A stretch of DNA of 32,000 nt, taken from assembly GCF_021054785.1 (NCBI RefSeq), contig NZ_CP088239.1, positions 60,001 to 92,000 on the forward strand, read 5' to 3'. Position numbers and translations under genes: made by a program. Origin of the DNA: Tannockella kyphosi. Lineage in GTDB: Bacteria > Bacillota_I > Bacilli_A > Erysipelotrichales > Coprobacillaceae. The notes under the pieces were generated by a model. It worked only from the letters and a program-made list of their open reading frames with translations, ran no database searches and had not been told where the DNA came from. Below are positions 1,291 to 24,425 of this stretch, piece after piece. Within the stretch, counting starts at the first letter, position 1. The number at the start of each line of letters is the position of its first letter.

Positions 1291-2379
1291 TTAGAAGAAC
1301 CAAGCAAATAGTGTACCAACCACACTACATGCTACCATGCTTTTCATAAAATAAGTAATACACTTTGTACGATCAATAGGTAACTTACCAACAAATTTAC
1401 CTGTTTGTCCATTCATTGCAAAAGTATACAATTCATCTTTATAACGAGTATTTAAAATCCATACAGGTAATAAAGCATATTGAATTGTTCCTTGTTCAAT
1501 ACGAATGTTTTTATGATCCACATGAACTGTATTATAACCAGTTACTGTTCCTTGTAATTGGTTTGTAACACTATTTGTGATACGAGTATTAATACGTTGT
1601 TCATTATCAAGGCAAGTAACATCATATTTTGATGCTAGATAACCAGATAAAAAACCAGTATTGAAAGGTACTGCTTTCGTATAATCAAATGGTTCAATAG
1701 ATTCCATCATTGTATCATCCATTTTAATAGAACCATCGGCAGGAACTTTTTCAAATCCCATTGTTCCTTTTCTATGGGCAGCATAATATTTAGTTTTCGT
1801 ATAAATATAGTTACGATCACTCCACGTATTTGAACGTGTTGCTTTAAACATCACATCTCCAGCACTAGTACAATCATATAACCAGAAAGGAACATAAAGT
1901 CCTTGAACTTCTTCAATATGATTATCTGTTTTAAAGCATCTAGGTAATAGTTTTTTTCCTTTTAAAAAGTTAGATAAACTATTAATTGCTTTTTCACGAT
2001 CTAATTGGAAAGGGATTACTAAATCAGGTCGATAAGATCCTTCTAATTGATCCATTAAGACAACTGGATTGTCACAATAAGGACACTTTGTTGCAGCAGT
2101 TACACTATCGGTAATAATTTGACCACCACATGATTTACATTGATAATATTTTAATTGATCAGCTTCTTCTACGTTCCAATCTTCTTGTTTATAATCTTCC
2201 CATTTCGGTGTTTCTTCTTTTGTTTCTATATGTTTAGTATAGTCATTTAATGTTGTTGCATCGAATGTTGAATCACAATAAGGACAAGTCATTTCTTGAG
2301 ACGATGAGTCAAAAGTTACATACCCGCCACAATTAGGACACTTGAATTGATCAGCAGTACTATTTTTTGTCGTTTCCAT
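1291..2379 (-). CDS. Double zinc-ribbon membrane protein (YdjG-like)
   Basis: Two CxxC...CxxC ribbons (CPNCGG..CPYCDS; CKSCGG..CPYCDN) and a C-terminal TM segment. ATG at 2379 (the track start at 2382 is TTG). Overlaps the upstream SPFH gene by 20 nt. Confidence 0.6.
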   Translation of the reverse strand: METTKNSTADQFKCPNCGGYVTFDSSSQEMTCPYCDSTFDATTLNDYTKHIETKEETPKWEDYKQEDWNVEEADQLKYYQCKSCGGQIITDSVTAATKCPYCDNPVVLMDQLEGSYRPDLVIPFQLDREKAINSLSNFLKGKKLLPRCFKTDNHIEEVQGLYVPFWLYDCTSAGDVMFKATRSNTWSDRNYIYTKTKYYAAHRKGTMGFEKVPADGSIKMDDTMMESIEPFDYTKAVPFNTGFLSGYLASKYDVTCLDNEQRINTRITNSVTNQLQGTVTGYNTVHVDHKNIRIEQGTIQYALLPVWILNTRYKDELYTFAMNGQTGKFVGKLPIDRTKCITYFMKSMVACSVVGTLFAWFF

Positions 2380-3682
2380 CAATTACATCCCCACATTCAG
2401 GACAGAATTTTGGAGCAGGTTCACCATCTTTAGGAGTCCATCCACATTTATCACAAACAATTTTTACTGTTGCTGGTTTCCCACATTCTGTACAGAACTT
2501 ACCAGCATTGACAGTACCACATTCACAAGTCCATCCTCCTGCCGGTTTTGGTTTCCCACATTCAACACAGAACTTACCAGTATTAACAGTACCACATTCA
2601 CAAGTCCATCCATCTACAGGTGCACTAGCAACACCAACTGGTGCTGGTTGAGTAGGGGCATCTTGTTGTTGTTGACCCATTGCAAATAATGATTGAGGAG
2701 AAGCTCCACCACTAGCACTTTGAGCCATATTCATTCCAGCAAAAGCCATAAAAGCACCTTGACCTTCATTAGCAGCAGCTGATTTTAAAGCTTCTGCTTG
2801 AGCTTGAGCAAGCATTGCAGCAGCTAAAGTTGGATCACGATAAACAGCAGTTTTTTGTAATTCTGTAATCATTGCTTCATCTTCCTGTGAAGCAGTAGCA
2901 GAATTAACACCAAATGAAACGATTTCTAAACCACGAAGTTCTTTCCATTTTTCTGATAAAAGATCATTTAAAACAGTAGCCATCTCTTCCGCATGATTTG
3001 GTAATGCTGAATAACGAATTCCCATTTCAGAAATTTTCCCAAAAGCAGGTTGCAAAGCAGTTAATAATTCTGTTTTTAACATGCTATCGATTTGAGAACG
3101 TTTATATTCAGTTGTTACATTTCCAACAACATTTGTATAGAATAATAAAGGATTTGTAATTTTATAAGAATATTCTCCATTACAACGAATAGAAATATCA
3201 ACATCCAAACCAATATTTTTATCCACTACTCGAAAAGGAATAGGGTTCATTGTTCCATATTTATTTCCTGTTAATTCTTTTGTATTAATATAATATACTC
3301 TTTGATCATTAGGAATCTCACCACCAAAAGTAAAACGATTTCCTAAAGTCTTAAATGATTCTATGATACTAGTACCTAAACTTCCTGCAAAAATACTAGG
3401 TTCAGTTGAAGTATCATAAGTAAAAGCACCTGGTTCGGCACATACTTCCATAATTTTCCCTTGTGCTACAATTAACATACATTGGCCATCAGCAACACTA
3501 ACAACAGAACCATTTGTAATCACATTATCTGATCCTTTTGTATTTGATGAACTAGAAGATGATTTCTTCACACCTTTCACTAATAATGTATCATTACTTA
3601 TTGAGTCACAAACAAAGTACTCTTTCCATTGATCGGCTAAAGTAGTGCTTAAAGCACTAGTTGCAGCTTTAATTAATCCCAT
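2360..3682 (-). CDS. SPFH-family protein of the YdjI / COG4260 (virion-core-protein-like) type with a triple Zn-ribbon tail
   Basis: 440 aa, GGAGG RBS. N-terminus MGLIKAA..LADQWKEYF and NGSVVSVADGQCMLIVAQGKIMEVCAEPG are typical of this family. C-terminus carries three CxCG..CxxCG ribbons. Confidence 0.7.
   Translation of the reverse strand: MGLIKAATSALSTTLADQWKEYFVCDSISNDTLLVKGVKKSSSSSSNTKGSDNVITNGSVVSVADGQCMLIVAQGKIMEVCAEPGAFTYDTSTEPSIFAGSLGTSIIESFKTLGNRFTFGGEIPNDQRVYYINTKELTGNKYGTMNPIPFRVVDKNIGLDVDISIRCNGEYSYKITNPLLFYTNVVGNVTTEYKRSQIDSMLKTELLTALQPAFGKISEMGIRYSALPNHAEEMATVLNDLLSEKWKELRGLEIVSFGVNSATASQEDEAMITELQKTAVYRDPTLAAAMLAQAQAEALKSAAANEGQGAFMAFAGMNMAQSASGGASPQSLFAMGQQQQDAPTQPAPVGVASAPVDGWTCECGTVNTGKFCVECGKPKPAGGWTCECGTVNAGKFCTECGKPATVKIVCDKCGWTPKDGEPAPKFCPECGDVIDGNDKK
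2475..2611 (-). repeat. Tandem 75-nt coding duplication (two Zn-ribbon modules)
   Basis: 62-nt cores at 2475-2536 and 2550-2611 are near-identical, with about 5 mismatches by eye. They encode GWTCECGTVN(T/A)GKFC(V/T)ECGKP. Confidence 0.85.
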
Positions 3683-3802: not shown

Positions 3803-3830
3803 TTGACATTCAAGAAGGAAGGTGTAAAAT
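3803..3830 (+). promoter_or_regulatory. Sigma-A-type promoter of the thiol-redox operon
   Basis: TTGACA (3803-3808), 16 nt, TAAAAT (3825-3830). Confidence 0.6.
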
Positions 3831-3874: not shown

Positions 3875-4129
3875 ATGGCGAATGTAGTGCACTTTAATAA
3901 AATTGTAGAAATCAATCAAGCATTAAAACAAGCAGGATTAAGCTGTTCTATTCATGCAGTAGGTGGATGTACCTGTTGTGGATTAGAATTACGATCACCT
4001 AAAGCAATAAATCAAGAAGAAGCGATTCTTATTATTAATCAATGTTTAAAAGAACAGTGGTTATATGTTTATCCTGATGGACAATTGTTAAGAATAGAAT
4101 CGAAATTCAAAAAACTAGTGAGGGAATAA
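3875..4129 (+). CDS. Hypothetical 84-aa protein with a GGCTCCG cysteine cluster
   Basis: RBS aagaaggtga. No family recognised. Cys cluster CSIH...GGCTCCG. Lies 2 nt upstream of the thioredoxin-like gene. Confidence 0.5.
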   Translation: MANVVHFNKIVEINQALKQAGLSCSIHAVGGCTCCGLELRSPKAINQEEAILIINQCLKEQWLYVYPDGQLLRIESKFKKLVRE

Positions 4130-4131
4130 AA

Positions 4132-4428
4132 ATGAAACTATTTCAAAGTAAAGCAGGATCAGTAAAATCAAATGCATTAAATGCAAGAGTAAAAGTATTA
4201 GGATCAGGTTGTAAAAAATGTAATGAATTAGAACAAAATGTAAAACTAGCATTAGTAGAATTAGGAATGGAACCAGTAGTAGAACATATTACCGATTTTT
4301 CTAAAATAGCAACTTACAATGTAATGAGTATGCCAGCATTAGTAGTTGACAATAAAGTAGTTAGTTATGGAAAAGTATTAACAGTAAATCAAGCAAAAGA
4401 ATGCATTCAAAATGCAACAGGAGAATAA
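4132..4428 (+). CDS. Small thioredoxin-fold protein (redox-active disulfide protein 2 type)
   Basis: 98 aa. VKVLGSGCKKCNEL (CxxC after beta-1) and MPALVVDNKVV are typical of the small Trx-like proteins found in ars/redox operons. Confidence 0.75.
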   Translation: MKLFQSKAGSVKSNALNARVKVLGSGCKKCNELEQNVKLALVELGMEPVVEHITDFSKIATYNVMSMPALVVDNKVVSYGKVLTVNQAKECIQNATGE

Positions 4429-4429
4429 A

Positions 4430-4846
4430 ATGTTACCAAAAGTAGCCTTTATATGTGTTCATAATTCATGTCGAAGTCAAATGGCAGAAGCATTAGGAAA
4501 ACAGTTAGCAGCCGATGTTTTTGAAAGTTATTCAGCAGGAACACACACGAAACCACAAATTAATCAAGACGCTGTGCGTCTAATGAAAGATGTCTATCAA
4601 ATAGATATGGAAGCAACCCAATGTTCGAAAGTATTAGAAGATATACCAGCAGTAGATATTGTTATTACAATGGGGTGTAATGTGGAATGTCCTTTTTTAT
4701 CATGTAGTCATCGAGAAGACTGGGGATTAGATGATCCTAGTGGTAATGAGGATGCTGTATTTTTAGAAACAATGAAAATGATTGAAACAAAAATTCTAGA
4801 TTTAAAAAAACGTATTCAAACAAATACTATTGAGATAGACTCTTAA
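4430..4846 (+). CDS. arsC: Arsenate reductase-type LMW protein-tyrosine-phosphatase family protein
   Basis: Start reassigned to the ATG at 4430 (AGGAG 6 nt upstream; 1 nt after the preceding stop). CX5R(S) P-loop CVHNSCRSQMAEA; distal Cys in TMGCNVECPFLSC; DWGLDDP motif. Confidence 0.8.
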   Translation: MLPKVAFICVHNSCRSQMAEALGKQLAADVFESYSAGTHTKPQINQDAVRLMKDVYQIDMEATQCSKVLEDIPAVDIVITMGCNVECPFLSCSHREDWGLDDPSGNEDAVFLETMKMIETKILDLKKRIQTNTIEIDS

Positions 4847-4888
4847 TAGTTTTTTTGTTATTGTATAAGTATTAGAAAAGAGGATGTT

Positions 4889-6964
4889 ATGAGAGGATAT
4901 ATTATTGAAAAATATAATAATATGAAAGGATCGTATAGTTGTTATCGACTTTTAGAAGAAGCAAAGAAGTTAGGTGTTTCGCTTCAAATTATTGGTAGTG
5001 AGGATACTAGTTTGAAAGATGGATACTTTTATAATGATGGAAAACGATTAGAAGAAGGAACGTTTCTTTTCAATCGCTCAAAAGATAAAAAAGTAAAAGA
5101 CTTTCTTTCCCTAACAAAACATAGTTATAATCAAACAAATCATTTCTTATATTACAATAACAAATATCATCAACTCCTTGCCATTAAAAACACAGATATT
5201 ATGACTCCTAATTATCTCTATGGAGATACAAATAAGGTATATCAAGATATCATAGAACAGATAGGTCTTCCTTTTGTAGCAAAAGGATTAGAAAGTTCCA
5301 TGGGTAAAGAAATATATTTAATTACAACAAAGAAAGAATATGCTTCTTTACCAGAAGCAAATTATTTATTTGAAGAATATATAGCTACAAGTTATGGCAA
5401 AGACCTCCGAGTATATGTTATTAATAACAAGGTTGTAGCATGTATGAAAAGACAAGCAAGAGAAGGCTTTAAAGCGAATGTTGCATTAGGTGCCACTGTT
5501 ACTAATTATTCAATAACACCAGAAATACAAACCATTGTACAACAAATTAGTGAGGTTATTTCTTTGGATTATTATGGTTTAGATTTGTTGTTTGGTAAAA
5601 CTGGATTTGTATTTTGTGAGCTAAATGTAATGGCGGGATTACAAGGCATTGAACAAGCAACCAATGTGAATATAGCTAAAAAAATAATCCAACATATTAT
5701 AACAAAAGAAAAAGAACAAGTAATCCAAGATAGCTATCAATCGTATTTAAAAGCACAACCTTTTCTTGATTATCATGCCCTAGATAGTACCAAAAGACAT
5801 CCAGAACTTAGTCAATCAATAATCGAAACATATTGTCCAAGCAATAATGTAGTAATAACAGGTAGTAAAGGCAAAGGAACAACAGCTAGAATACTTGCAA
5901 AGCTATTAGAAAATGTAGGAAAAGTAGGGTTAATGACTAGTCCACATATTTTAGATTTTACAGATCGTATTCAAATAAATAGCCAACCAATTAATGATCT
6001 AAACTTTGTTAACGTAATGGATCAAGCAATAACCAAAACAAAAGATATTTCATTACCAGAACACCAATATATTAGTCCAATAGCTATCCAAGCAATTGCA
6101 TCCTTAGAATATTTCAAACAAGAACAAACAGATTATCAAATCTTTGAATGTGGAAAAGGAGTACGATATGATGATGTCAATAACATCAAACATAAATACG
6201 CTATTATTAATCCTATCTTTTTAGAACATACAAGAGAATTAGGGAATAGTATTGAAGCAATTATAGAAGATAAATTAGCGATAATTACAAAGGAAACAAA
6301 GTATGTTTTTATTGCCAAACAAAACTTTGATATCGATCTTATATTATCCAAGGTTCCTAGTCATTGTATCGCTAAAATAGAAGGAATTGATTATGGAATT
6401 AAAAACCTGCGTTATACCAATCAAGGGATGATTTTTGATGTTTTTAGTAAATATAATTATCAAGATATCTCTCTTCATTTATATGGGAAACATATGGCAA
6501 AAAATACAGCTTTAGCCTTATGTGCTTATGAAACAATAACGAAAGAACAATATCCTAAAAAAGATATTCACCTATCTGTTCCAGGAAGACTGGATATCAT
6601 TAGAACAGATCCTTTTCTATTAGTAGATGCTTGTATTCATGAAAGAAGTAGTTATGAAGTATTGAAAGTTTTAGAATATCGAGGGTTAAAGAAGGTTGTT
6701 TTTGTAATTGCGATTCCTGATGATAAGGATTATATAGGGGTTATTGAAACAATACAAGCGTATGCTAGTAAGATTATTTTAACAAAAACAAAGAATCCAC
6801 ATTATCATTTTAGCGATAACCAACAAAAGGTCTTACAAACAAAAAATATTCCTTTTGAATACATAGAAGAAGTGGGTATTCTTGAAGAAGATGTTTGTTA
6901 TTTAGGAACAACAGCCTATGTAACAGAAATATTAAATCTCTTAAAAGGTAGTGAAAATGGGTAA
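4889..6964 (+). CDS. Fusion protein: RimK-type ATP-grasp ligase (about aa 1-275) plus FolC-type Mur ligase (about aa 283-691)
   Basis: N-terminal half resembles RimK: GKDLRVYVINNKVVACMKRQAREGFKANVALGATV, DYYGLDLLF, ELNVMAGLQGIE. C-terminal half resembles FolC: VITGSKGKGTT P-loop, MTSPHILDFTDRIQIN, FECGKGVRYDDVN, INPIFLEHTRELGNSIEAIIEDKLAI, PGRLD..LVDACIHE. Confidence 0.75.
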   Translation: MRGYIIEKYNNMKGSYSCYRLLEEAKKLGVSLQIIGSEDTSLKDGYFYNDGKRLEEGTFLFNRSKDKKVKDFLSLTKHSYNQTNHFLYYNNKYHQLLAIKNTDIMTPNYLYGDTNKVYQDIIEQIGLPFVAKGLESSMGKEIYLITTKKEYASLPEANYLFEEYIATSYGKDLRVYVINNKVVACMKRQAREGFKANVALGATVTNYSITPEIQTIVQQISEVISLDYYGLDLLFGKTGFVFCELNVMAGLQGIEQATNVNIAKKIIQHIITKEKEQVIQDSYQSYLKAQPFLDYHALDSTKRHPELSQSIIETYCPSNNVVITGSKGKGTTARILAKLLENVGKVGLMTSPHILDFTDRIQINSQPINDLNFVNVMDQAITKTKDISLPEHQYISPIAIQAIASLEYFKQEQTDYQIFECGKGVRYDDVNNIKHKYAIINPIFLEHTRELGNSIEAIIEDKLAIITKETKYVFIAKQNFDIDLILSKVPSHCIAKIEGIDYGIKNLRYTNQGMIFDVFSKYNYQDISLHLYGKHMAKNTALALCAYETITKEQYPKKDIHLSVPGRLDIIRTDPFLLVDACIHERSSYEVLKVLEYRGLKKVVFVIAIPDDKDYIGVIETIQAYASKIILTKTKNPHYHFSDNQQKVLQTKNIPFEYIEEVGILEEDVCYLGTTAYVTEILNLLKGSENG

Positions 6965-23463: not shown

Positions 23464-23540
23464 TGGAGGTTTAGCTCAGTTGGGAGAGCATCTGCCTTAC
23501 AAGCAGAGGGTCAGCGGTTCGAGCCCGTTAACCTCCACCA
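23464..23540 (+). tRNA. tRNA-Val (UAC)
   Basis: Cloverleaf folded by hand. Acceptor GGAGGTT/AACCTCC, anticodon loop CTTACAA, encoded CCA. Confidence 0.9.
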
Positions 23541-23553
23541 TTTTTTAGTTAAT

Positions 23554-23629
<76 letters not shown>

Positions 23630-23633
23630 TAAT

Positions 23634-23717
23634 GGAGAAGTAGCGAAGAGGCTAAACGCGGCTGACTGTAACTCAGTTCCTAACGGTTCGGTGGTTCGAA
23701 TCCGCCCTTCTCCACCA
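23634..23717 (+). tRNA. tRNA-Tyr (GUA)
   Basis: Acceptor GGAGAAG/CTTCTCC, anticodon loop CTGTAAC, long variable arm, encoded CCA. Confidence 0.88.
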
Positions 23718-23721
23718 TTCT

Positions 23722-23797
23722 TGGGGTATAGCCAAGCGGTAAGGCAACAGACTTTGACTCTGTCATCCCCCTGGTTCGAATCCAGGTACCCCAGCCA
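23722..23797 (+). tRNA. tRNA-Gln (UUG)
   Basis: Acceptor TGGGGTA/TACCCCA, anticodon loop CTTTGAC, encoded CCA. Confidence 0.88.
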
Positions 23798-23806
23798 AAT
23801 AAACAA

Positions 23807-23882
23807 GACCTGCTAGCTCAGTTGGTAGAGCATCTGACTTTTAATCAGAGGGTCAGGCGTTCGAGTCGCCTGCGGGTCACCA
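23807..23882 (+). tRNA. tRNA-Lys (UUU)
   Basis: Acceptor GACCTGC/GCGGGTC, anticodon loop CTTTTAA, encoded CCA. Confidence 0.9.
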
Positions 23883-23906
23883 TTTTTTATAGAAGCATTA
23901 AGCCAT

Positions 23907-23995
23907 GCCCAGGTGGCGAAACTGGTAGACGCACAGGACTTAAAATCCTGCGGACCTTAAAATCCGTGCCGGTTCGATTCCGGCCCTGGGCACCA
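23907..23995 (+). tRNA. tRNA-Leu (UAA)
   Basis: Acceptor GCCCAGG/CCTGGGC, anticodon loop CTTAAAA, long variable arm, encoded CCA. Confidence 0.9.
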
Positions 23996-24001
23996 TTTTT
24001 T

Positions 24002-24075
24002 GCGGGTGTAGTTCAATGGTAGAACTTCAGCCTTCCAAGCTGACTACGTGGGTTCGATTCCCATCACCCGCTCCA
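24002..24075 (+). tRNA. tRNA-Gly (UCC), copy 1
   Basis: Acceptor GCGGGTG/CACCCGC, anticodon loop CTTCCAA, encoded CCA. Confidence 0.9.
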
Positions 24076-24098
24076 AATAATTTAATAAACCGCCTTAT

Positions 24099-24172
24099 GC
24101 GGGTGTAGTTCAATGGTAGAACTTCAGCCTTCCAAGCTGACTACGTGGGTTCGATTCCCATCACCCGCTCCA
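24099..24172 (+). tRNA. tRNA-Gly (UCC), copy 2
   Basis: Reads identical to copy 1. Confidence 0.9.
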
Positions 24173-24195
24173 ATCAATTTAATAACGCATATTAT

Positions 24196-24269
24196 GCGGG
24201 TGTAGTTCAATGGTAGAACTTCAGCCTTCCAAGCTGACTACGTGGGTTCGATTCCCATCACCCGCTCCA
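24196..24269 (+). tRNA. tRNA-Gly (UCC), copy 3
   Basis: Reads identical to copy 1. Confidence 0.9.
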
Positions 24270-24270
24270 T

Positions 24271-24346
24271 GCTTGAGTAGCTCAGTTGGTAGAGCAATCG
24301 GCTGTTAACCGATCGGTCGCAGGTTCGAGTCCTGCCTCAAGCGCCA
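24271..24346 (+). tRNA. tRNA-Asn (GUU)
   Basis: Acceptor GCTTGAG/CTCAAGC, anticodon loop CTGTTAA, encoded CCA; 1 nt after tRNA-Gly copy 3. Confidence 0.9.
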
Positions 24347-24349
24347 TGT

Positions 24350-24425
24350 GGCTCGTTGGAGAAACGGTTAACTCACTTGCCTTTCACGCAAGCATTCACG
24401 GGTTCGAATCCCGTACGAGTCACCA
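24350..24425 (+). tRNA. tRNA-Glu (UUC)
   Basis: Acceptor GGCTCGT/ACGAGTC (one G-U), anticodon loop CTTTCAC, T-arm CACGGGTTCGAATCCCGT, encoded CCA. Confidence 0.88.

Follow-up and report, generated by a model that had tools for sequence, protein, structure and literature searches.

In the 32,000-nucleotide window of Tannockella kyphosi DNA analyzed here (NZ_CP088239.1, positions 60,001 to 92,000), a single gene encodes a RimK-type ATP-grasp ligase fused to a FolC-type Mur ligase. We found that this gene represents a seldom-seen fused state of two translationally coupled genes that are conserved as a pair in gut and rumen Clostridia, and its product is predicted to be one polypeptide with two independent ATP-dependent carboxylate-amine ligase sites. 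We tentatively propose that the protein is a two-site ligase for glutamyl chains of mixed gamma and alpha linkage, with a folate-type compound as the likeliest acceptor. The family is uncharacterized; its known parts are ATP-grasp and Mur-type amide ligases and a two-site logic like that of the cyanophycin synthetase CphA.

The fused protein and its two halves

The ORF listing of the window gives, at positions 4889..6964 of the plus strand, a single open reading frame (ORF) with an ATG start that encodes 691 amino acids (aa) plus a stop codon. An original prediction made from the DNA sequence had described this ORF as uninterrupted and as holding full-length RimK-type and FolC-type halves. The ORF was confirmed, with every motif quoted in that prediction present in its translation, and the two full-length halves were upheld by Pfam, NCBIfam, alignments and Foldseek. 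An exact-sequence match identified the product as WP_249029550.1 of T. kyphosi (Erysipelotrichales, Coprobacillaceae; genome 2.26 Mb), named 'RimK family alpha-L-glutamate ligase' in RefSeq. Pfam placed RimK at aa 92-270 (E = 7.8e-36) and Mur_ligase_M at aa 323-546 (E = 7.8e-12). In NCBIfam, the N-terminal half marginally passed TIGR00768 (rimK_fam, aa 17-270; 146.6 bits, cut-off 143.4) and the C-terminal half passed TIGR01499 (folC, aa 319-652; 169.2 bits, cut-off 162.65), while the NCBIfam equivalog scores for RimK-S6, LysX, MptN, CofF, bifunctional FolC, cyanophycin synthetase and MurC-F fell short of their cut-offs by a wide margin. The solved structures nearest in sequence were L. casei FPGS and RimK. 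Because of these E-values, and because the frame runs for 691 codons in DNA of 30% G+C, the domain matches and the ORF lie far beyond chance.

Structure prediction agreed with this division. An AlphaFold2 model, computed from a 66-sequence alignment, was compact, with a mean predicted local distance difference test score (pLDDT) of 89.8 and a predicted template modeling score (pTM) of 0.84; in a two-module chain, this pTM suggests a defined packing of both halves. The predicted helices of aa 262-282 and 284-292 run continuously over the junction. Foldseek matched the N-terminal half of the model to RimK (5zct, 7qyr; template modeling score (TM) 0.80-0.83, root-mean-square deviation (rmsd) 2.7-3.0 Å) and the C-terminal half to FPGS/FolC (2vor, 1jbw, 1w78; TM 0.72-0.77). 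Both halves are complete, with their catalytic motifs intact.

The N-terminal half shares the ATP-grasp fold of RimK (TIGR00768, a family that also holds CofF, MptN and LysX), with an rmsd of about 2.8 Å. Its ATP-grasp motifs GxDxR, FxxN and D...E-x-N align with those of RimK, and D172, R174, D232, E244 and N246 are invariant among fused members. However, identity to RimK is only about 25%, and the N-terminal half, unlike RimK, is always paired with or fused to a FolC-like ligase. The RimK motif FRSNLHRGG is replaced by F[KR]ANVALGA in the RimK-like family, which thus lacks the His-Arg pair. The model for RimK proper (NF007764) gave 83.5 bits against a cut-off of 331, and no linkage to rpsF was seen in the examined loci; the CofF and MptN models gave 79.4 and 40.2 bits against cut-offs of 350 and 300. 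Some split RimK-like relatives stay under the TIGR00768 cut-off; the one at locus L043 scored 124.6 bits.

We compared the C-terminal half with E. coli FolC (identical to 1W78), L. casei FPGS and the canonical folC products of loci L043 and L088, using in addition the invariant columns of 66 family members. It shares with FolC/FPGS (1FGS/1JBW, 1W78, 2VOR) the two-domain Mur-type fold and the Glu/Asp/His/Lys catalytic set, retaining the P-loop GSKGKGT, the omega loop TSPHIxxFxER, E420, D428, H447 (the His of the DH motif), K462 and the PGR and DKD motifs. Of these, the P-loop, the omega loop, E420, H447 and K462 are invariant across the 66 members and alignable with both L. casei and E. coli FolC. 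The L. casei FPGS counterparts of H447 and K462 are the metal-binding His and the carbamylated Lys185.

The motifs of the binding pockets are different. In the FolC-like family, canonical TxFE (E. coli T122-F124, at the pteroate site) is replaced by ISP[IM]G[IL]Q, DGAHN by DACI[NH], (D/G)PR(A/G) by NPHYxF, GS[LF][YH] by GTT[SA], GLGGRLDATN by GKG[VA]x[YFW]DD[VT]N, and the N-terminal GLxR region by YxSYLxA..DY...D..KRxP, with invariant D, R and P. The replacement motifs are themselves family-invariant. In E. coli FolC, F124 and D154 contact the pterin, on which F124 stacks. D313, H316 and S412 of L. casei FPGS affect glutamate binding, and FPGS mutagenesis has implicated the C-domain motifs DGAHN, (D/G)PR(A/G) and GS[LF][YH] in binding L-glutamate. 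The loss of TxFE is weaker evidence than the other replacements, since the canonical FolC of L088 also lacks the Phe. Because the catalytic set is retained and the pocket motifs are replaced, the C-terminal half appears to have kept its chemistry (ATP, Mg and an acyl-phosphate on a carboxylate), with remodeled pockets for the acceptor and the incoming amino acid.

At about 19-27% identity to FolC, the C-terminal half barely passes the subfamily model and fails the bifunctional FolC equivalogs NF008101 (137 versus 700 bits) and NF047860 (95.5 versus 360 bits). Split FolC-like relatives score 200-220 bits with TIGR01499, compared with about 333 for co-resident canonical FolC. Locus L043 has its canonical folC (332.8 bits) 5 kb upstream of a split module whose own FolC-like gene scores 200.6, and the unrelated locus L088 has one 2.4 kb downstream of the fused gene P0008. 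In the two genomes that allow the comparison, the FolC-like half is therefore a paralogue and not the housekeeping FolC. The label 'FolC-like' given by the original prediction thus holds for the family; it does not hold in the sense of an orthodox FolC, with four motifs replaced and the equivalog cut-offs out of reach. Other Mur-type relatives fit less well: the MurE, MurF, MurC and MurD models gave 18-39 bits against cut-offs of 212-335, and the fold matches were to FolC, which has no Mur N-terminal UDP-binding domain. Kinship with PgsB/CapB was considered and rejected for lack of a model match, as TIGR04012 did not appear among the best 25 of 28 NCBIfam matches (E up to 1); no pgsC was seen.

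Origin of the fusion from a coupled gene pair

Most relatives of the fused protein are encoded by two genes. A protein search returned eight fused clusters. Stand-alone proteins were far more numerous: several hundred were FolC-like (430-460 aa; 42-45% identity with the C-terminal half) and over 500 were RimK-like (about 285 aa; 46-51% identity with the N-terminal half). Scanning a species-representative genome collection with patterns of the RimK half yielded 80 loci, mostly from Lachnospiraceae, with some from Oscillospiraceae, Acutalibacteraceae, Tissierellia and gut metagenome-assembled genomes (MAGs) labeled Alphaproteobacteria or Bacteroidales. In all 80, a folC-like gene lies on the same strand downstream of the rimK-like gene, directly so in 78; in L033 and L064 other genes stand between them. 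The pair is split in 79 loci and fused in one. Among the 73 split pairs with an estimable start, 48 have a stop/start overlap of 4-32 nt and 11 more have a gap of at most 30 nt. A filter-free HMMER scan of 1.84 billion representatives found three fused representatives of the RimK-FolC-like family among the best 150 matches listed. In plasmid and phage collections there was no close or fused homologue, and the matches were to single halves at less than 31% identity.

That most relatives are split, and that the junction lies in A-rich DNA, could point to a sequencing or assembly artefact, in which a frameshift or a lost stop has joined two separate genes. We give this practically no credence. 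RefSeq and two independent Logan assemblies contain the identical 691-aa protein, with no difference in length, and P0002, a fused relative 63% identical to the window protein, is fused in the same frame in five contigs, with a junction whose nucleotide sequence differs from that of the window and has no gaps. Because the identical protein occurs in independent assemblies and P0002 is fused through other junction DNA, the fusion is no frameshift or assembly artefact. In addition, the eight fused clusters (34-100% identity) align end to end, with both halves conserved and only the linker varying in length. The original prediction had held that relatives with two separate genes would imply an artefact; such relatives are indeed the rule, yet the fusion derives from a coupled operon and has recurred independently.

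The fused groups differ in how close they are to split proteins. For P0003, the identity of the halves to split proteins is 75%, and for P0004-P0007 it is 72-77%, to a different set of split proteins. The window protein and P0002 reach no more than 51% identity with any split form, and P0008 is further removed. By these differences, rimK-like and folC-like genes fused independently at least four times. Such recurrent fusion of translationally coupled neighbors is strong evidence that the two enzymes act together.

This history also bears on whether the halves could be two unrelated housekeeping activities, a folate-retention FPGS and an S6 RimK, that shared an operon and fused without a common substrate. 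Each half does pass its subfamily model, and the RefSeq name is simply that of a RimK family alpha-L-glutamate ligase. However, each of the 80 members found of this RimK subfamily is paired with this FolC-like paralogue, mostly through overlapping stop and start codons, the FolC-like half is not the housekeeping copy where this could be checked, and both the repeated fusion and the compact model, with its high pTM, speak for joint function; we therefore regard this explanation as very unlikely. More distant RimK-like proteins are unpaired: P0433, P0460 and P0416 (33-37% identity) were considered as further paired examples and set aside, as none adjoins a FolC. With no FolC beside these more distant proteins, pairing with a FolC-like ligase is a trait of this RimK subfamily in particular.

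Two side observations concern these distant relatives. At L094:4001-6045, P0433 (33% identity) lies directly upstream of rplK-rplA, an arrangement suggestive of a RimK subfamily tied to the ribosome and separate from that tied to FolC. The distant relatives P0436, P0462, P0419 and P0441 comprise tandem FolC-FolC proteins of 869 and 850 aa, each with two complete FolC modules, and tandem RimK-RimK proteins of 574 and 593 aa.

A full-text literature search found no description of a RimK-FolC pair or fusion. Family members carry the database names 'RimK family alpha-L-glutamate ligase', 'ATP-grasp domain-containing protein' and 'Mur ligase family protein'.

Candidate products of the two sites

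In the mechanism that we tentatively favor, the FolC-like site would phosphorylate the gamma-carboxyl of an N-acyl-glutamate-type acceptor and join an amino acid to it by a gamma (isopeptide) bond, and the RimK-like site would phosphorylate the alpha-carboxyl of the C-terminal residue and attach L-glutamate by an alpha bond. Because the two sites, as we infer, activate gamma- and alpha-carboxyls, the product would contain both gamma and alpha amide links and would most simply be a glutamyl chain of mixed linkage made by both sites jointly. With a folate-type cofactor as the acceptor, the enzyme would extend or cap folylpolyglutamate tails, much as CofF and MptN cap F420 and methanopterin. The original prediction had suggested tails of mixed gamma and alpha linkage, attached to folate or to some other acceptor, or else a short polymer of amino acids, and the evidence still allows that whole range.

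Several observations connect the module with folate. The FolC-like half belongs to the FolC subfamily and has kept the omega loop. In addition to the canonical folC genes near the modules of L043 and L088, locus L039 carries a tetrahydrofolate (THF) riboswitch at 5093-5189 (83.5 bits), followed at 5220-5825 by a gene for a FolT-family S-component of an energy-coupling factor (ECF) transporter, immediately upstream of the pair. Folate neighbors thus occur in 3 of about 84 loci, compared with roughly 0.3-0.7 expected by chance on a rough estimate. Furthermore, the uncharacterized 853-aa protein P0437 (L093:5371-7932, from the high-G+C MAG GCA_965308505.1) joins a RimK-family domain (aa 22-282) to a canonical FolC (aa 394-844; TIGR01499 338 bits, all FolC motifs) through a repetitive A/D/V-rich linker of about 100 aa. 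Its domain order is that of the window protein, RimK family then FolC family; its FolC half is 24% identical to the window C-terminal half, and its RimK half is no closer to the window family than to E. coli RimK. P0437 is an independent RimK + FolC fusion event.

There is also precedent for the chemistry. Ferone et al. reportedly found in 1986 that the folates of E. coli contain alpha-linked glutamates, for which an enzyme distinct from FolC is responsible, and to our knowledge no gene has been assigned to this activity. Among RimK-family enzymes, CofF and MptN put alpha-Glu on gamma-glutamyl cofactors (PMC8141765), CofF acting on gamma-F420-2 and MptN on tetrahydromethanopterin after a gamma-glutamyl ligase. 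Unlike the module, both are archaeal and neither is paired with or fused to a FolC-type ligase; CofE, the gamma-ligase partner of CofF, has a different fold (PMC1971073). The methylofuran enzymes MyfA and MyfB were rejected as a precedent, both being ATP-grasp enzymes with no FolC-type partner (PMC8141765).

A number of findings weigh against a folate-type acceptor. The folT gene of L039 has its own 9-bp terminator-like hairpin with a T-rich tail, which suggests that it is transcribed separately from the pair, and Rfam found no riboswitch controlling the module in the window or in 51 related loci, with the THF riboswitch in L039 only. Riboswitch control of the module was thus rejected, and L039 is a case of adjacency only. 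P0437 is known from a single MAG contig, no metagenome relatives of it were found, and its RimK half is not specifically close to the window family. In the FolC-like half, the replacement of the TxFE, DGAHN, (D/G)PR and GS[LF][YH] motifs indicates remodeled pockets, so the acceptor, the incoming amino acid or both may be other than folate and L-Glu. Canonical FolC co-resides with the module, and a second folate gamma-ligase needs a reason. Finally, some accessory genes do not look connected with folate (the membrane-anchored c7L described below, and PGA_cap in five loci), and the neighbors of the fused gene in the window are uninformative.

No third gene is universal among module loci. The best-supported partner, c7 (about 245 aa), lies directly upstream of the pair, often overlapping it, in 17 of the 80 loci and in several lineages. 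None of its 67 homologues has a name; Pfam assigns FGase to one distant member, and three members give weak colinear FGase matches. The AlphaFold model of c7 (pLDDT 93.1) is closest to Atu2144 (2odf), presumably an FGase-family protein. The next fold matches were the phage poly-gamma-glutamate hydrolase PghP (3a9l, 21dc; TM 0.59), followed by M28 and M14 zinc peptidases that include the deglutamylase CCP5, and the invariant residues H64, D140, H142 and E232 are consistent with a metal site. We predict c7 to be a metallohydrolase of the FGase/PghP-like kind, with N-formylglutamate amidohydrolase as a relative; under the folate proposal it would trim the glutamyl chains in about a fifth of lineages. 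Several loci have the operon order c7, c7L, rimK-like, folC-like, in which c7L (675-704 aa) combines a degenerate c7 domain with a CDC48_N-like domain and is anchored in the membrane at its C terminus. Examples of the four-gene operon are L090:5001-10025 and L091:5001-9984; at L092:4999-7829, c7 and c7L stand without ligases, beside a helicase-like gene. PGA_cap (CapA/PgsA family) is found directly upstream of the module in 5 of the 80 loci, which represent about two lineages; the fused gene of the window has no such neighbor.

The same parts could serve a cyanophycin-like polymerase, in which the RimK-like site would extend an alpha-poly-glutamate (or similar) chain and the FolC-like site would decorate each gamma-carboxyl with an amino acid. 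The product would be a free branched poly-amino-acid, for storage or matrix, that the FGase/PghP-like hydrolase degrades. The original prediction had not recognized the domain order as that of a characterized enzyme; in this it was wrong, as CphA1 (TIGR02068; 7LG5, 7LGJ, 7WAE) has the same single-chain order, ATP-grasp then Mur-type ligase, with two active sites that form two types of amide bond within a single product. CphA1 chains were the only solved chains in the Foldseek list aligned over both halves. The fused protein itself is not CphA1: the CphA model gave 39 bits against 850, the CphA1 domain arrangement does not superpose on the model (Foldseek TM 0.27-0.36, rmsd 21-23 Å), the fused ORF starts directly with the RimK fold and has no CphA N domain, and its halves resemble RimK and FolC more closely than they do the G and M domains of CphA.

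Beyond domain order, a polymerase would fit the recurrent fusion and the compact predicted architecture. The module needs no other conserved gene, as expected of an enzyme that polymerizes free amino acids. It would also fit the resemblance of c7 to PghP and FGase and the position of PGA_cap, and the new invariant residues K423, R449, R303, H638 and Y639 in the FolC-like pockets would suit an anionic chain. RimK itself makes poly-alpha-Glu from free Glu (PMC8141765; PMC10375531). However, there was no PgsB signal, c7 and PGA_cap are each confined to the minority of loci given above, and the proximity of folate genes and the P0437 fusion are left unaccounted for. A literature search found no paper on such a polymer, and we know of none reported from Lachnospiraceae or Erysipelotrichales. 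On balance we consider a cyanophycin-like polymerase somewhat unlikely. Its more specific form, a new cyanophycin-like biopolymer of gut anaerobes with an alpha-Glu backbone, capped gamma-carboxyls, a dedicated FGase/PghP-like turnover enzyme and the T. kyphosi protein as single-chain synthetase, seems to us unlikely.

We also considered polyglutamylation of a protein or peptide, with the FolC-like site starting a gamma branch or acting on a C-terminal Glu, the RimK-like site elongating in alpha linkage and c7 serving as the deglutamylase. RimK acts on S6, as TTLL does on tubulin, and the RimK-RpsF complex 5zk6 was among the fold matches; c7 has fold neighbors among the M14 carboxypeptidases and in CCP5, a tubulin deglutamylase, the CDC48_N-like domain of c7L is of a substrate-binding type, and small acidic proteins (DUF6472 and c43) are encoded 3' of the module in some lineages. 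However, no candidate target is universally linked to the module, the small proteins downstream of it vary by lineage, and the window and P0002 have no candidate target gene in common. The candidate c43 (80 aa, C-terminus CEFEE, 3' of the module in seven loci) was rejected as a RimK-type substrate and ascribed to synteny, because the module is missing from 56 of the 57 metagenome loci that carry c43. In addition, we know of no FolC-family enzyme that modifies a protein, and we judge polyglutamylation to be quite unlikely.

Feature positions, gene neighborhood and significance

Table 1 Features of the fused T. kyphosi gene, in window coordinates.
Feature	Position	Strand	Basis
Ribosome-binding site AAGAGGA, 4 nt 5' of the ATG	4878..4884	+	Read from sequence
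Whole fused gene, 691 aa plus stop, = WP_249029550.1	4889..6964	+	ORF, exact match
RimK-family ATP-grasp half, aa 1-275	4889..5713	+	Pfam, TIGR00768, Foldseek
ATP-grasp metal/ATP motif D232...E244-x-N246 (GLDLLFG...FCELNVM), invariant in all fused members	5582..5626	+	Alignment; matches RimK GVDIL...MEVN
Junction, predicted helices aa 262-282 and 284-292, from RimK C-terminal helix to FolC-like N-terminal helix	5672..5764	+	AlphaFold, alignment
FolC-family Mur-type half, aa 283-691	5735..6961	+	TIGR01499, Foldseek, phmmer to L. casei FPGS (E 1.7e-20)
P-loop GSKGKGT, aa 325-331 (canonical FolC: GTNGKGS)	5861..5881	+	Alignments
FolC-type omega loop TSPHILDFTDR, aa 350-360; invariant T350, S351, P352, H353, F357, R360	5936..5968	+	Alignments
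ECGKGVRYDDVN, aa 420-431; E420 and D428 kept (E. coli FolC E146, D154); GLGGRLDATN remodeled, with invariant C421, K423, D429	6146..6181	+	Alignments
EHTRELG...EDK, aa 446-462; H447 and K462 align with the L. casei FPGS metal His and Lys185	6224..6274	+	Alignments
DACIH, aa 580-584, in place of FolC DGAHN; the His position is the invariant Ile583	6626..6640	+	Alignments
NPHYHF, aa 636-641, in place of FolC (D/G)PR(A/G); H638, Y639, F641 family-invariant	6794..6811	+	Alignments

Upstream of the fused gene, positions 3875-4846 hold an 84-aa gene of unknown function, a Thioredoxin_3 gene and a gene resembling low-molecular-weight (LMW) phosphatase/ArsC; a site resembling a strong promoter is present at 3803-3830, with no terminator detected ahead of position 4889. 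Downstream are a lipoprotein gene and a divergent gene for a LysR-type regulator, the latter judged by sequence alone. The LMW phosphatase gene, possibly together with a small unannotated ORF before it, recurs near P0002 (L084), where the downstream genes differ. At the P0008 locus, the fusion is flanked by genes for a transglutaminase-core protein and a DUF5721 protein.

Elsewhere, DUF6472 (57 aa, rich in Cys and acidic residues) overlaps or directly follows the folC-like stop at L033:7316, L038:2610, L041:4558, L044:8326 and L052:8168. A Clostridiales-1 RNA (RF01699) lies between the rimK-like gene and a divergent phosphoribosyltransferase gene at L007:732-895, L010:3536-3653 and L042:5786-5903 (minus strand). 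Farther from the fused gene, the window contains an array of 11 tRNA genes at 23465-24422 (plus strand), including three equal-scoring copies at 24002-24266. It also contains two adjacent genes of 363 and 440 aa with repeated CxxC zinc-ribbon motifs (for example GWTCECGTVNxGKFCxECGKP, twice) at 1291-3682 (minus strand), followed by a gene for a Gly-rich membrane protein at 519-1325.

If the folate proposal is true, the module would be the first genetic candidate for alpha-linked or mixed-linkage folylpolyglutamates, an activity reportedly described biochemically in E. coli in 1986. The module is common among the Clostridia of human and ruminant guts, a setting in which it matters how folate is retained and exchanged. 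If instead the product is a free polymer, the family would represent a second natural case of CphA-type, two-site, template-free poly-amino-acid synthesis, with its own hydrolase, and would be of interest for biopolymer engineering. Under either interpretation, recurrent fusion shows that the two enzymes act jointly, and the single-chain T. kyphosi protein offers a convenient subject for biochemical and structural work.

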